Origin: an uncultured Mycoplasma sp.
Lineage (GTDB): Bacteria > Bacillota_I > Bacilli_A > RF39 > UBA660
Length of the DNA: 64,000 nt
NCBI GenBank assembly: GCA_945947035.1
Contig: CAMEXD010000003.1
Location: 19,760 to 83,759, forward strand
Direction: 5' to 3'
The notes under the pieces are model-generated. The model was not told where the DNA came from and did not search any database. It worked only from the letters and a program-made list of their open reading frames with translations. Below, piece after piece: positions 3,211-40,203 of the stretch (position 1 is its first letter; each line of letters begins with the position of its first letter). Position numbers and translations under genes: made by a program.

Positions 3211-4395
3211 CTAATTTGTATTGCCGCGATAGATTTTTATAAAACCTGCACTGCCAGAACCTGGTGTACCTTTTCCTTGATCACCTTCGCCTGTAAGTTT
3301 TCCATTTTTATGGCCAACCCAGATATATCCTGTTGCACCAGCACCTCCAGTATTACTGCCTCCGCTATAGTCAGTTGTACCTCCAGCACCACCGGTTCCA
3401 GATGCACTCCATCGAGTTCCAGTTGTATCATTCATATAAGTAATTCTATCTACTCCAGCACTACCTGATTTCCCATTTGCATTTATATAGTTTCCACCTG
3501 AATCAATACCACCAGTGCCCCCAGAACCAGAGCTAGAAGCGTAATGGGAAGCATCACTACCAGTATTTGCAGAAGTAACAAGCATTGAAGAATAAGATTC
3601 CACAGAACTATTAATATTTGCAGTTGAAGTAACACCTATTGATCCAAGAGAAAATACAATAGTATCTCCTTTATTTAGCATTACTCTTGAACAGGCACAT
3701 CCTCCACCTCCTCCTCCGCCGCCACCATAGGCGTATAATTTTGTGTCAAGATCCTGATAGTCACCATAACCACCATTACCAGAAGCTCCAAATAATTCTA
3801 TTTGAAAATATCCATCTTCCGGAGCAGTCCATGTTTGTGATGTTGTATATGTGTTTATTAAAATATATTCTGTTGGTTCACTTGGAAAAGTTACAACATT
3901 TATATCACTACTTACATTAGATTCTTTGTTATAATTACCACTTTTATCTTGTATTGTATTAGCTTTTAATTTTATATTACCTGTTGTACTTGTTTCACTT
4001 GAAGTTATAGTAATAATATATTTATAACCATTATCTATTTGTTCTTTTTCTATATTACTTATTGTTATATCTCCTGTTACCGTAAAGTTATCGCTTGTTA
4101 AAGTAGTATCAATTACACCAAAATTATCTGTACAATTCATAGTATAATTTGCATTACTATTTATTCCTATTTCAGAGGCATCTGGTCCATCTATTACACA
4201 TGTTGGTCCTTTTAAATCACTATAAACTATTTTAATATTATTTTCTTGTTCTACTTCATAACTAAATAAAGCATATGAAGTCAGTCCTACACATGATAGT
4301 ATTACAAGTATTATCGTTATTAATAAATATTTATTTATTATTTTTACATCGGTTAAGAGGAAATTCTTTAGTTTTTTAACTTGCCCCCCCCCCAT
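3211..4395 (-). CDS. Family member A: signal-anchored protein with an Ig-like middle domain and a glycine-rich C-terminal domain. The reading frame is disconnected from its RBS-served ATG (4414) by a G10 tract.
   Basis: 394-aa ORF. Hydrophobic anchor LLITIILVILSCVGLTSYALFSYE. C-terminal YFQIELFGASGNGG...GGGGGGGGG...GDTIVFSLG...GFIKIYRGNTN. Paralog of 4563..5723 and of the 5' end of 29977..31437. Confidence 0.8.
   Translation of the reverse strand: MGGGQVKKLKNFLLTDVKIINKYLLITIILVILSCVGLTSYALFSYEVEQENNIKIVYSDLKGPTCVIDGPDASEIGINSNANYTMNCTDNFGVIDTTLTSDNFTVTGDITISNIEKEQIDNGYKYIITITSSETSTTGNIKLKANTIQDKSGNYNKESNVSSDINVVTFPSEPTEYILINTYTTSQTWTAPEDGYFQIELFGASGNGGYGDYQDLDTKLYAYGGGGGGGGGCACSRVMLNKGDTIVFSLGSIGVTSTANINSSVESYSSMLVTSANTGSDASHYASSSGSGGTGGIDSGGNYINANGKSGSAGVDRITYMNDTTGTRWSASGTGGAGGTTDYSGGSNTGGAGATGYIWVGHKNGKLTGEGDQGKGTPGSGSAGFIKIYRGNTN
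4384..4393 (-). repeat. Homopolymeric G10 (C10 on plus strand) tract inside the 5' end of gene A
   Basis: Counted directly: ttg-cccccccccc-atatcg. The upstream frame reads MQTKIRYGGGAS-stop. Confidence 0.95.
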
Positions 4396-37388: not shown

Positions 37389-37766
37389 ATGAAAGAAGAA
37401 TTTAAAAAATTTATTGCTCGTGGTAATGTAATGGATTTAGCTGTTGGTGTTATTATGGGTGGTGCCTTTGGCAAAATTGTTTCATCTTTAGTTGAAGATA
37501 TTCTAATGCCTTTAATTGGAATAGTAAGTGGTGGTATTGACTTTTCTAATCTTAGTTTGACTCTTGGAGATGCAAACATAAAATATGGTTTATTTATCCA
37601 AAATATAATTGATTTTTTAATTATTTCATTTTGTATCTTTATTATGATTAAATTTATAAATAAAATTACTCATAAAAAAGAAGAAAAACCTGTTCCACCA
37701 AAGAAAAGTGATGAAGTTTTATTACTTGAAGAAATTAGAGATTTATTAAAAAAAGATGAAAAATAA
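37389..37766 (+). CDS. mscL: Large-conductance mechanosensitive channel MscL
   Basis: [40 protein letters not shown]. Confidence 0.95.
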
Positions 37767-37857
37767 CAAAAAATTATTTTTATATGAAAGGAGGACAAAG
37801 TCTAATTTTTAATAATTCGTTAATAAATTATATATTAACAAATTTTACCACAGGATA

Positions 37858-37886
37858 TTGACAAAAACTACCAATTAATATATGAT
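37858..37886 (+). promoter_or_regulatory. Near-consensus sigma-A promoter for the abi gene
   Basis: TTGACA (37858-63), a 17-nt spacer, then TATGAT (37881-86). Confidence 0.6.
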
Positions 37887-37897
37887 TGATTTATATG

Positions 37898-37928
37898 TGA
37901 TCTTCGGTATCCCGTGTGGACCGAAGAC
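37898..37928 (+). repeat. Left copy of a 31-bp structured inverted repeat (hairpin in the abi 5' UTR)
   Basis: TGATCTTCGGTATCCCGTGTGGACCGAAGAC. A 7-bp stem TCTTCGG/CCGAAGA with a 13-nt loop, followed by CTTTTTAATTT and then the ATG. Confidence 0.9.
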
Positions 37929-37938
37929 TTTTTAATTT

Positions 37939-38895
37939 ATGAAAGAATTTAAAACAATTGATGATCAAGTTAATTTATTAAAATCAAGAAATATCATATT
38001 TAATGATGAACAAAATAATAAACAACTATTATTACATAATAACTATTATAATATTATAAATGGATATAAAGATTTATTTTTAGATAATAATAACCTACCA
38101 AATTATAAAAATGGAACTAATTTTGAAGAAATATATTCTCTTTATGAATTTGATAGACAATTAAGAAATATATTTTTGGAATATATTTTAAAAATTGAAA
38201 ATTCATTAAGAGCTTTGGTTGCCTATTATTTTTCTAAAGAACACGGAAATGATAATTATTTAAAATTAGATAATTTTGAAACATATAAAAATACTTTTGC
38301 AAGTAAAGATACAAAGCAAAAGCAAATTAAACACATTCAAATTCTTATTGGAAATATTAATAAAAATATTGCTCAAAACATTGAAACTAAATATATTAAT
38401 CATTATATGACATATCACGGTTTTTTACCTTTATGGGTATTAGTTAATATATTGTCATTTGGAGATATATGTAATTTCTATAAATTAATGCAGCAAAAAG
38501 AAAGAATTGAAGTATCAAAAGCATTTAATATTAGTGAAAATGATTTATATAGTTTATTAAATATTTTATGTAAAGCAAGAAATTTATGTGCTCATGATGA
38601 AAGATTGTATAATTATAAATTTCAAACATCTACAAGTATAAATGATACTAAGTATCATTCTATGTTAAATTTATCAAAAATAAACAATAGATATAGTATT
38701 GGTAAAAATGATTTATTTGCTGTTGTTATAGCATTAAAACTATTATTAAATAAAGAAGATTATGATAAATTTCACCATAAATTATTCAGTAGAATTATGA
38801 GTATTAAATCTAAATTAAAAACTATAACTTTAGATGATATCTTAAAGTCAATGAACTTTCCTAAAAATTGGCACGATATATCAAAAATGTCCTAA
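37939..38895 (+). CDS. Abi family (Abi_2, AbiD/AbiF-like) abortive-infection protein
   Basis: 318 aa with the typical Abi_2 features NNYYNIINGYKDLF...YFS...LPLWVLVNILSFGD...ARNLCAHDERLYN. Confidence 0.85.
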   Translation: MKEFKTIDDQVNLLKSRNIIFNDEQNNKQLLLHNNYYNIINGYKDLFLDNNNLPNYKNGTNFEEIYSLYEFDRQLRNIFLEYILKIENSLRALVAYYFSKEHGNDNYLKLDNFETYKNTFASKDTKQKQIKHIQILIGNINKNIAQNIETKYINHYMTYHGFLPLWVLVNILSFGDICNFYKLMQQKERIEVSKAFNISENDLYSLLNILCKARNLCAHDERLYNYKFQTSTSINDTKYHSMLNLSKINNRYSIGKNDLFAVVIALKLLLNKEDYDKFHHKLFSRIMSIKSKLKTITLDDILKSMNFPKNWHDISKMS

Positions 38896-38919
38896 GTCCA
38901 CACGGGATACTTAGGATCA
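38889..38919 (+). repeat. Right copy (reverse complement) of the 31-bp structured inverted repeat; contains the abi stop codon
   Basis: GTCCTAAGTCCACACGGGATACTTAGGATCA with stem TCCTAAG/CTTAGGA. The 15-mer GTCCACACGGGATAC is the exact complement of 37907..37921. Confidence 0.9.
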
Positions 38920-39017
38920 ATATTATTATATGTAATAAATATAAATTTATCAAAAAATAATACATTGCTTGTTTTTTGATATTTTTTTGGACCAAGGAGG
39001 TTTTTTATAATAAAAAA

Positions 39018-39035
39018 ACTCTTCATTTCAAGAGT
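39018..39035 (-). terminator. Terminator downstream of the tRNA pair
   Basis: ACTCTTGAAATGAAGAGT on the minus strand, followed by T7. Confidence 0.7.
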
Positions 39036-39047
39036 AATTTTAAATAA

Positions 39048-39124
39048 TGGTCGGGAAGACAGGATTTGAACCTGCAACCCCTTGGTCCCAAACCAAGTGC
39101 TCTGCCAAGTTGAGCCACTTCCCG
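39048..39124 (-). tRNA. tRNA-Pro (anticodon UGG), CCA encoded
   Basis: Folded by hand: acceptor CGGGAAG/CTTCCCG, anticodon arm CTTGG-TTTGGGA-CCAAG, T-loop TTCAAAT. Confidence 0.9.
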
Positions 39125-39129
39125 ATAAA

Positions 39130-39206
39130 TGGTGTCCTGGGAGGGAATCGAACCCCCAACCGATGCCTTAGAAGGGCATTGCTCTATCCAATTGAGCTAC
39201 CAGGAC
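39130..39206 (-). tRNA. tRNA-Arg (anticodon UCU), CCA encoded
   Basis: Acceptor GTCCTGG/CCAGGAC, anticodon arm ATGCC-CTTCTAA-GGCAT, T-loop TTCGATT. Confidence 0.9.
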
Positions 39207-39240
39207 ACAATTTTTTTTGCATTAACTTGAATGCTCTTTG

Positions 39241-39269
39241 ATTATACAACATATTTTACAATTATTCAA
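39241..39269 (-). promoter_or_regulatory. Promoter of the tRNA-Arg/tRNA-Pro operon
   Basis: Minus strand TTGAAT-N17-TATAAT, about 35 nt upstream of tRNA-Arg. Confidence 0.55.
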
Positions 39270-40203
39270 GATTTTTTCGCAATTTTTCTGAAATTTTGTT
39301 ATTATTTTCCATAAAAACCACTTTAGAAACATCATAATTATCAAAAACAGAATATGAAATAATATCAATTAAATCCTCATTTACTGTTTTTTCTTCCAAA
39401 TTATCATATATAAAATCATTAAATTTTAAAGTTAAAGTATCATTATCCATTTCATAATCTTCAAGCTTTAAATTATATGATAAAACAGAGATTAAATTAT
39501 CATAGAAAATATAATTATTTGATAGACTCTCAACAATAATTTCAATTTTTTCTCTATCATCATTAACATATTTAGTTATAGGAATTAAATTATCTTCTTC
39601 TCCTAAAAAGTATAAAACAATTTTACTAATATTATTATTGCTTGTTATTTCATACTTTTTATTAATACCAATATCTCTTGTAAGTATAGTAGGAATATTT
39701 TTCATATTAGAAACATATTTTAAAAGCTCACCTTCAACATATATTTCAACTCCATTTATATCATCTATTTCAGTTAAAGTATAAGTTATTGCTTCGATCA
39801 TTTTTTCAAGTTGTGAATCACTTACATTTAAAAACTCACTAGAAAAATTTATTTTTATAATTTTATTTTCAAGTTCTACACTTAATACTTTAGTATTTTG
39901 AGGAAGTATTGGTTTAAAATAACTAGGAAGAAGTGCATTTTTATTATTTTTTTCAATCATAACATCAAGTAAAGTTTTTACTTTTTCTAAACTTGTCATT
40001 TCTTTTGAAACATAAATATATCCTTTACTAACATAATTATCTTCATTAAGAGTATATATTACTTCTTTTTTAGCATTAGTGTAATCTTCTATTTTATATA
40101 TATTTTTATCTTCTTTTATTAAATTCAAACTGACAAATGTAAATACAATAAAAATGGCTATACTTGATATAAAAATTCTATTTAAAGCTTTTTTCTTAAT
40201 CAT
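39262..40203 (-). CDS. GerMN-domain (GerM-like) sporulation/germination lipoprotein-like protein
   Basis: N-terminal anchor and two repeats of the GerMN-type pattern (LLPSYFKPILPQNTKVLSVELENKIIKINFSSEF). Confidence 0.6.
   Translation of the reverse strand: MIKKKALNRIFISSIAIFIVFTFVSLNLIKEDKNIYKIEDYTNAKKEVIYTLNEDNYVSKGYIYVSKEMTSLEKVKTLLDVMIEKNNKNALLPSYFKPILPQNTKVLSVELENKIIKINFSSEFLNVSDSQLEKMIEAITYTLTEIDDINGVEIYVEGELLKYVSNMKNIPTILTRDIGINKKYEITSNNNISKIVLYFLGEEDNLIPITKYVNDDREKIEIIVESLSNNYIFYDNLISVLSYNLKLEDYEMDNDTLTLKFNDFIYDNLEEKTVNEDLIDIISYSVFDNYDVSKVVFMENNNKISEKLRKNLE

Follow-up and report, generated by a model that had tools for sequence, protein, structure and literature searches.

Why should a single abortive-infection gene carry, at both of its ends, a copy of the same small hairpin? 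The question is posed by a 64,000-nt stretch of DNA from an uncultured Mycoplasma sp. (GenBank assembly GCA_945947035.1, contig CAMEXD010000003.1, positions 19,760 to 83,759; hereafter the window), in which an abi gene (37939..38895, plus strand) lies between two inverted copies of a 31-nt element. The gene encodes a 318-aa Abi_2 / AbiD-AbiF family HEPN protein. The answer that we favour, and regard as probable, is that the locus is a type III-like toxin-antitoxin or abortive-infection module of the AbiD/AbiF family, in which a hairpin RNA antitoxin of about 30 nt would be encoded twice, by two convergent units. The hairpins, their strands and positions, and the T-runs that follow them are conserved in about 40 related loci.

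What do the repeats consist of? A preliminary inspection of the letters and open reading frames (ORFs) (the sequence-only reading) had placed the two 31-mers correctly, at 37898-37928 on the plus strand and, as the reverse complement, at 38889-38919. It had also counted them correctly: 25 of 31 positions are identical, and the six that differ form three stem pairs, paired in both copies (TCTTCGG/CCGAAGA versus TCCTAAG/CTTAGGA). A repeat search lengthens the inverted repeat to 36 nt (37898-37933 versus 38884-38919, 81% complementarity), because a T-run trails each copy on its own strand. The central 15-mer, GTATCCCGTGTGGAC, has two sites in the 64-kb window when up to three mismatches are allowed, where chance predicts 0.06, and two matches were reached in none of 100 shuffles. 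A covariance model search of the same 64 kb found no third hairpin. The copies have a G+C content of 45-55% against 24.3% for the window, a richness to which the sequence-only reading had already drawn attention.

The upstream copy, hairpin U (37898..37928, plus strand; folding energy -12.4 kcal/mol; 64.6 bits in the covariance model), has a lower stem of seven pairs, 37901-37907 with 37921-37927, all of which covary among relatives. Its upper stem comprises two C-G pairs within 37911-37919 (in the model used, 37912-37913 with 37918-37919), and the two stems are separated by bulges, UAU on the 5' side and A on the 3' side. The downstream copy, hairpin D (38889..38919, minus strand; 65.8 bits), reads GAUCCUAAG-UAU-CC-CGUGU-GG-A-CUUAGGAC on its own strand. 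The abi ORF begins 11 nt past the upstream stem and ends within the downstream stem, where hairpin D covers the final sense codon and the TAA stop (38893-38895); the stop codon thus lies inside the right hairpin, as had been noted. The three compensated pairs at which U and D differ arise because the D stem must also encode Ser-stop (TCC TAA). In other subclades, the downstream stem carries TAG in place of TAA.

How would such elements be expressed? Before hairpin U lies a sigma-70-type promoter, TTGACA-17-TATGAT (37858..37886, plus strand), which could serve both the hairpin and abi; it matches the consensus at 11 of 12 positions and was recognized in the sequence-only reading. What that reading had missed is that the right copy, on the opposite strand, has a promoter-like site and a T-run of its own. 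The site is TTGATA-17-TATAAT (38925..38953, minus strand), again with 11 of 12 matches, and its -10 box ends 5 nt before the repeat. These two are the best sigma-70-type matches in 37700-39300, and each is directed into one hairpin copy. The T-run after hairpin U (37929..37933, plus strand) is terminator-like and lies as an attenuator would, before the toxin ORF, which bears out the earlier description of a terminator-like hairpin between promoter and ATG. The T-run after hairpin D (38883..38887, minus strand) appears on the plus strand as AAAAA in the region of an abi Lys codon. Each copy therefore has a promoter-like site and a T-run on the same strand, and the locus looks like two small convergent units flanking the toxin ORF. 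The ATG follows the T-run of hairpin U by 5 nt and has no Shine-Dalgarno sequence. The absence, which the sequence-only reading had noted, is real, but it says little about this gene in particular, since 18 of the 49 long ORFs in the window likewise lack an SD-like 4-mer.

Is this arrangement a peculiarity of one genome? Relatives of the abi protein number more than 1500, and a scan of one genome per species gave 80 loci, among which a clade of 41 loci, with proteins 43-100% identical to the query, was analysed. A covariance model built from 53 distinct hairpin sequences was searched in all loci and in the window. Within the clade, 40 of the 41 loci have an upstream hit on the strand of the gene, 37 have a downstream hit on the other strand, and 36 have both. 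The upstream stem ends 10-37 nt before the start codon, save in L029 (98 nt) and in L034, where an insertion has displaced it. The downstream copy, in its 37 loci, begins between 2 nt before and 13 nt after the point where the protein match ends (-2 to +13), over the stop codon. T-runs trail both kinds of copy across the related loci, and only on the strand of each unit. Promoter elements are conserved as well. Upstream copies have a -35 box (at least 5/6) and a -10 box at a fixed position in 28 of 40 loci, compared with at most 1 of 40 in control windows. Downstream copies have a -10-like hexamer (at least 5/6, mostly CATAAT) ending 3-12 nt before the stem in 34 of 37, compared with 5-16 of 37 in controls, and by eye a TGTAT element recurs about 18 nt upstream of them. 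This conservation supports the independent transcription of hairpin D.

In L033 the upstream copy is not detectable, the downstream copy is weak (E 0.55) and an extra copy on the same strand lies about 180 nt past the gene; the covariance model places the L033 copies at 3416-3460 (minus strand) and 3607-3651 (plus strand).

The sequence-only reading had allowed that the repeat might turn out to be a common, dispersed element of the repetitive extragenic palindromic (REP) type, unrelated to abi genes. That is ruled out: the window holds two copies in 64 kb, and in the 80 genome loci all model hits at E<=0.01 lie at the ends of abi genes except the extra copy in L033.

Could recombination between the repeats instead invert the coding sequence with respect to a fixed promoter and so act as a switch? 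Inverted repeats that bracket a promoter-less coding sequence invite this proposal, which was among those of the sequence-only reading. It is nonetheless hardly credible. All 40 upstream copies lie between a promoter-like element and a start codon, and the flipped arrangement was seen in none of these loci. A crossover in the loop would leave hybrid stems mismatched at three pairs, yet 92% of stem cells are paired in a model-fitted alignment of 77 distinct copies, and hybrid stems were not encountered. Because promoter-like elements lie on both sides, flipping would not switch the gene off. Nor was a recombinase noticed among the neighbouring ORFs, where the Pfam scan covered MscL and GerM only.

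The stems themselves bear the mark of selection on structure, as had been surmised from the three compensated pairs of the window. In the same alignment, changes on both sides occur in seven of the seven lower-stem pairs, and the three positions that vary most show, among others, the pair types C-G/U-A, A-U/C-G/U-A and G-C/A-U. Covariation scores 0.462 in the alignment and 0.212 in shuffles, of which 0 of 500 reach 0.462, and every slid register scores well below the true one. RNAalifold independently predicts five lower-stem pairs from the model-fitted alignment (A3), with compensatory changes in all five; from an ungapped alignment (A2) it predicts the upper stem only, because 13 sequences there are shifted by one base. 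Other parts of the hairpin, the apical loop excepted, are conserved in sequence. The 5' bulge is UAU, or UUA, AU or AAA in subclades; the upper stem has 2-3 bp, mostly CC/GG, with variants (CCU/AGG, GCG/CGC, UUC/GAA) that by eye look like further covariation; a 3' A is frequent; and the apical loop, of 3-5 nt, is variable. That the hairpins vary in sequence and yet stay paired points to selection on an RNA structure and not on a shared protein-binding DNA end.

The loops bear on another proposal, that the two RNAs work by base pairing in the manner of type I systems: the D RNA would be a cis-antisense RNA to the abi 3' end, and the U loop would pair with the 3' hairpin loop, leading to mRNA decay or circularization. 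By geometry, the final ~36 nt of the abi mRNA form a perfect complement to the D RNA, and the two 15-nt loops of the window are identical, which makes the U loop complementary to the loop at the mRNA 3' end. The perfect complementarity of the central 15-mers, reported in the sequence-only reading, holds for the window and a few relatives. Elsewhere it fails, the loops of U and D being identical in only 7 of 35 two-copy loci and different in 28, so that loop-loop pairing is not the conserved constraint. Moreover, the sequence of loop and bulge is conserved between loci, which pairing within a locus does not require, and orphan hairpins in prophages (below) have no abi mRNA in cis. As a primary mechanism RNA pairing is thus improbable, and it could be a secondary effect of the convergent layout. 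The idea of a short, antitoxin-like 5' RNA, put forward in the sequence-only reading, remains sensible; control by 5'-3' loop pairing, to which it was joined, does not.

How far does the two-hairpin layout extend in the family? Flanking inverted repeats beyond chance were sought in 40 distant Abi_2 loci (36% identity to the query or less), in L033 and in the phage phiC2 locus, L041 being left out as its flank is too short, with a palindrome in L080 as the only find. The two-hairpin layout is thus confined to this clade. The L080 case, from Streptococcus mitis, is a 27-nt palindromic hairpin, CAACTGTTTCCAAAATGGAAATAGTTG, on both sides of an Abi_2 gene (ORF 1495-2511): one copy stands about 80-110 nt before the ORF and the other after it (score 44, reached in 0 of 100 shuffles). 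Another convergent small RNA next to an abi gene is found in mitis-group Streptococcus, where the Rfam sRNA Srn266 (RF02822, 115 bits) is found 6 nt past the stop codon of a distant Abi_2 gene, on the strand opposite to it (L075 3457-3567, L078 3457-3567 and L077 3457-3533, all minus strand).

What does the gene between the hairpins encode? The product matches PF07751 (Abi_2) over profile positions 2-184 of 184 (E 2e-47, 162 bits) and PADLOC AbiD (E 4.7e-63). Its only solved relative is PbAbiF (PDB 8VZ6, E 6.7e-15), to which it is ~25% identical; identity to AbiF of phage phiC2 is 27.8%. The segment R214-NLCA-H219 fits the HEPN R-x4-6-H motif and aligns with the catalytic R210/H215 of PbAbiF, and R214, N215 and H219 are invariant in 17 homologues. 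Judged by these alignments the product is an Abi_2 HEPN protein homologous to PbAbiF that keeps the catalytic R-x4-H, with a predicted RNase and toxin activity.

AbiF is described as an HEPN RNase toxin kept inactive by an adjacent noncoding RNA, and the PbAbiF dimer as binding two RNAs whose bulged nucleotides block the active site (PMC12737573). The AbiF-AbiFr pair of Prevotellaceae PbAbiF (Zilberzwige-Tal et al., 2025), taken here as relayed in PMC12737573 and PMC13064643, resembles the present locus in several respects. Both have an Abi_2 HEPN toxin with the aligned R-x4-H and a small structured noncoding RNA beside it; a dimeric toxin that binds two RNAs would fit the two RNA genes here; and the bulge proposed to block the active site in AbiFr has a counterpart in the conserved bulge of these hairpins. 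They differ in that the RNA motif here is distinct and encoded twice, in separate convergent units and not upstream only, with one copy overlapping the toxin stop codon.

By this analogy, the hairpin RNA is most likely an antitoxin that acts by protein binding, as in AbiF/AbiFr. Unit U would have a strong promoter from which most transcripts end at the hairpin and its U-run, giving a short RNA of roughly 35-45 nt, while read-through would give the toxin mRNA, without a Shine-Dalgarno sequence in this clade. Since termination would dominate and the rare read-through product would lack that sequence, we propose that the RNA far exceeds the toxin. Unit D would be transcribed from the opposite strand, end at its own U-run inside the final abi codons and provide a second source of hairpin RNA independent of the toxin promoter. 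Each monomer of the Abi dimer would bind one RNA, as PbAbiF does with AbiFr, and the RNA would block the HEPN site, probably via the conserved bulge; phage infection would lower or displace the RNA and so free the RNase. The downstream RNA, which is antisense to the toxin 3' end by geometry, may add a second layer of control.

Another parallel is RCd22 of Clostridioides difficile, which has two hairpin motifs, causes termination before abiF and neutralizes the toxin in cis and in trans; mutations that break its stems abolish neutralization and compensatory ones do not (PMC12373285). The phiC2 AbiF is called a homologue of AbiFCd in the same paper. There, and by prediction here, a SigA-type promoter is followed by a hairpin RNA, a terminator and a toxin ORF reached via read-through. 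Each system has two hairpin motifs, and in both the stem structure counts for more than its sequence, as mutation indicates there and natural covariation here. The difference is one of arrangement: RCd22 consists of two tandem RF03085 motifs in a single upstream RNA of ~100 nt with a separate terminator, whereas the window has two single-hairpin units on opposite strands and opposite sides of the gene, in which each hairpin would be its own terminator.

RNA antitoxins of another kind are known from ToxIN, where ToxI consists of 36-nt repeats in tandem, which the toxin processes, and is kept in excess by a terminator before the toxin gene. Pseudo-ToxI of phage phiTE, which Blower et al. reportedly described in 2012, is said to be a phage-borne antitoxin-like RNA that serves as an escape route. 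The likeness would lie in the excess of RNA over toxin through an intervening terminator, and a phage-borne RNA would parallel the prophage orphans considered below. ToxN differs in having a fold that is not HEPN, ToxI in its tandem repeats, and any anti-defence role of the orphans here is inferred. AbiF-family toxins with RNA antitoxins were characterized only in 2025 and have been proposed as ancestors of Cas13.

The sequence-only reading had pointed to a 5' structure that throttles expression, with lactococcal AbiD1 as its model. Control of AbiD1 (Bidnenko et al., 2009, PMC2661086) is described, in the account given in PMC13064643, as translational activation by a phage protein. AbiD1 belongs to the same protein family and its low expression is likewise set through the 5' region, but the present hairpin stops 11 nt short of the ATG, which leaves the start site outside it. 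The throttle stands in part: the upstream hairpin probably attenuates transcription of the toxin, and its RNA is most likely an antitoxin too. No lactococcal AbiD/F was found among the 25 plasmid records listed.

Is the hairpin then a form of the known Abi-associated RNA motif? It resembles RF03085 (Weinberg et al., 2017) in being a hairpin of ~35 nt tied to Abi_2 genes. The main text of that paper does not mention abiF. Neither hairpin, searched as 2.6 kb or as 66 nt with E up to 10, matches RF03085 or any other Rfam family, while phage phiC2, as a positive control, scores 37.6 bits. The RF03085 consensus, CCCGCC-A-AGC...GCU-CAAAUC-GGCGGG, has its internal loop on the 3' side, whereas in the window hairpin the bulge, UAU, is on the 5' side and the upper stem is CC/GG. 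The hairpin RNA is not a member of RF03085; it is a separate motif. RF03085 was not found at the gathering score in 27 distant Abi_2 loci either, and a close PbAbiF relative, sought among the collected loci for RNA comparison, was not found, the best being 30% identical.

These comparisons also weigh against an RNA antitoxin: with no RF03085 match and the bulge on the other side, the AbiFr analogy rests on context. Several further points count on the same side. A canonical -35 box is rare before downstream copies, though the -10 box is conserved. A terminator scan called neither hairpin, because their loops exceed its 8-nt loop limit. Single-sequence folding energies of the transcribed strands are a modest 1.7-2.0 standard deviations below those of shuffles. 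Lastly, three complete loci (L013, L028 and L032) and a further metagenomic subclade have the upstream copy only, and the second copy is therefore dispensable.

Do the hairpins occur apart from abi? An exact-loop scan of IMG/VR with the bare 15-mer gave 71 matches, of which four have the entire hairpin and 67 are chance matches to the loop only. A more specific metagenome scan gave 38 loci, with full-length hairpins in 33 plus two truncated, low-scoring matches to the model. By tblastn, the contexts of these hairpins are canonical cassettes, subclades with the upstream copy only, and orphans without an abi gene. In the main type of orphan, an extended -10 element precedes the hairpin and a terminator follows it: TGTTATAAT, 6 nt, GGCTTCGG-TATCCCG[T/C]GTGGA-CCGAGGTC, T7. 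Single units of this kind are found in L098 (7831-7875), L100 (1335-1379), L158 (7406-7450) and L168 (3716-3760), and two in L186 (8807-8851 and 9612-9656), all on the plus strand and with no abi gene in the surrounding DNA examined. These five contigs are prophage-like and from the human gut, and their orphans lie between an integrase and a CI-like repressor gene: in L098 the integrase is of the serine type (phrog_95) and the CI-like repressor is phrog_4, and in L186 the two units lie between integrase fragments and the repressor. A different case is L152 (413-457, plus strand), where a full hairpin without a T-run, CCTGGG-TATCCCGTGTGGA-CCCAGG, lies ~270 nt upstream of ORFs leading to a large terminase gene; it recalls the cos hairpin of phage sk1, which is reported to inhibit AbiF (PMC13064643).

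As the orphan units have no abi gene, the functional entity is the RNA unit itself. Their placement suggests that phages use the unit; the simplest such use would be that of an antitoxin mimic, for which pseudo-ToxI and the sk1 cos hairpin offer analogies. Solo hairpins without an abi homologue in the locus were also seen in L159 (5638-5682), L161 (795-839), L172 (4004-4048) and L178 (192-236), with a TTGACA-type -35 box upstream in L159 and L172; such hairpins may have been left behind by lost cassettes or may mark loci that encode an antitoxin only.

A bolder version of the antitoxin proposal can be put forward tentatively, as a possibility we would rate well below the antitoxin module as such. 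The hairpin would represent a new class of antitoxin RNA, a split, bidirectional pair, in which D would be at once an antitoxin gene, a cis-antisense RNA and the toxin 3' end (a type III/type I hybrid), and temperate gut phages would have captured the unit as an RNA decoy that disarms Abi. Taken jointly with this, and just as tentatively, the captured unit would be present once or twice in the lysogeny modules, with possibly a further copy close to a terminase gene. In the AbiF-family literature compared here, with the primary Cell 2025 paper outside the comparison, we found no description of two convergent RNA genes around the toxin gene, of a hairpin that overlaps its stop codon or of prophage orphans.

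Might the hairpins be no more than punctuation in cis, the upstream one an attenuator and the downstream one a bidirectional terminator or 3' stabilizer of the mRNA, with no antitoxin acting in trans? Both are stem-loops followed by T-runs beside a gene, the upstream one lies between promoter and ATG, and RCd22 likewise causes premature termination (PMC12373285). Yet a terminator needs only a stem and a U-run, and here it is the bulge and upper stem that are conserved among proteins of 43-100% identity, while the lower stem is free to vary. On the abi strand, no T-run follows the downstream hairpin; the T-run is on the other strand. The -10 box at a fixed distance from the downstream copy, and promoter-bearing orphan copies located far from any abi gene, also go beyond what punctuation calls for. 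This explanation is accordingly unlikely, though we give it more weight than any other alternative to the antitoxin module.

The remaining proposal, also found in the sequence-only reading, is that the hairpins are the ends of a one-gene mobile cassette, either terminal inverted repeats or DNA hairpins on which a recombinase supplied in trans would act. That a cassette exists is clear from blastn. The conserved unit (37853..38955, ~1.1 kb) comprises the upstream promoter, hairpin U, abi, hairpin D and the downstream promoter. In comparisons with 16 relatives from other genomic contexts, the left border of similarity is at 37840-37853 in 14, the exceptions being L005, where it is at 37891, and L034, which is interrupted by an insertion; the right border is at 38925-38962. 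The neighbours differ between loci and the contexts are many. In the window, mscL lies to the left, and tRNA-Pro (39048-39124) and tRNA-Arg lie to the right on the minus strand, within 39048-39206. The tRNA-Pro is 128 nt from the right repeat, close to the ~130 nt given earlier for the distance of the gene from its 3' end. A tRNA gene lies within 700 nt in 17 of the 41 cassettes, with its 3' end facing the cassette in 16 of the 17; the tRNAs are varied (Pro, Arg, Glu, Gln, Lys, Gly, Ser and His). Relative to tRNA-Arg/tRNA-Pro, the cassettes of the window and L012 are oriented opposite to those of L016-L019. These genomic comparisons indicate that the cassette moves.

The many contexts, the facing tRNA genes and the two orientations are what a mobile element with hairpin ends would lead one to expect. 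The hairpins, however, are not at the ends: the unit runs ~45 and ~36 nt past them, taking in both promoters to their -35 boxes, and similarity that extends to 37853 and 38955 does not fit terminal repeats. There are consistent sequence differences between the left and right stems, and the solo and phage copies are promoter-hairpin-terminator units and not cassette ends. The cassette contains no transposase gene, and neither a transposase nor a recombinase gene was noticed among the immediate neighbours of the window cassette, where the Pfam scan covered MscL and GerM only. It is thus very improbable that the hairpins serve as mobile ends; the part of the earlier proposal that survives is that the cassette occupies many contexts.

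Two other observations concern the cassette and its surroundings. In L034, the insertion (1250-2554, 1.3 kb) lies ~55 nt into the abi ORF and encodes a 355-aa protein with a zinc-ribbon-like N-terminus, probably an insertion sequence transposase. In the window, the interval that separates the cassette from tRNA-Pro holds a stem-loop with A/T runs on both sides (AAAAAAACTCTTCATTTCAAGAGTAATTTT, 39007-39036), which probably terminates the tRNA operon and may work in both directions.

If the RNA antitoxin reading is right, what does it mean for the Abi_2 family? The RNA partner of such a toxin can differ widely from the Rfam motif, and surveys based on RF03085 would miss systems of this kind. An RNA that comes from two independent, convergent genes, and not from one leader, bears on how repeat number and arrangement evolved toward CRISPR-like arrays. 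With a length of ~1.1 kb and all of its parts included, the cassette should be easy to test. In the same gut community, phages have the RNA without the toxin, and if these copies are true antitoxin mimics, they would offer a testable case of RNA-based anti-defence.

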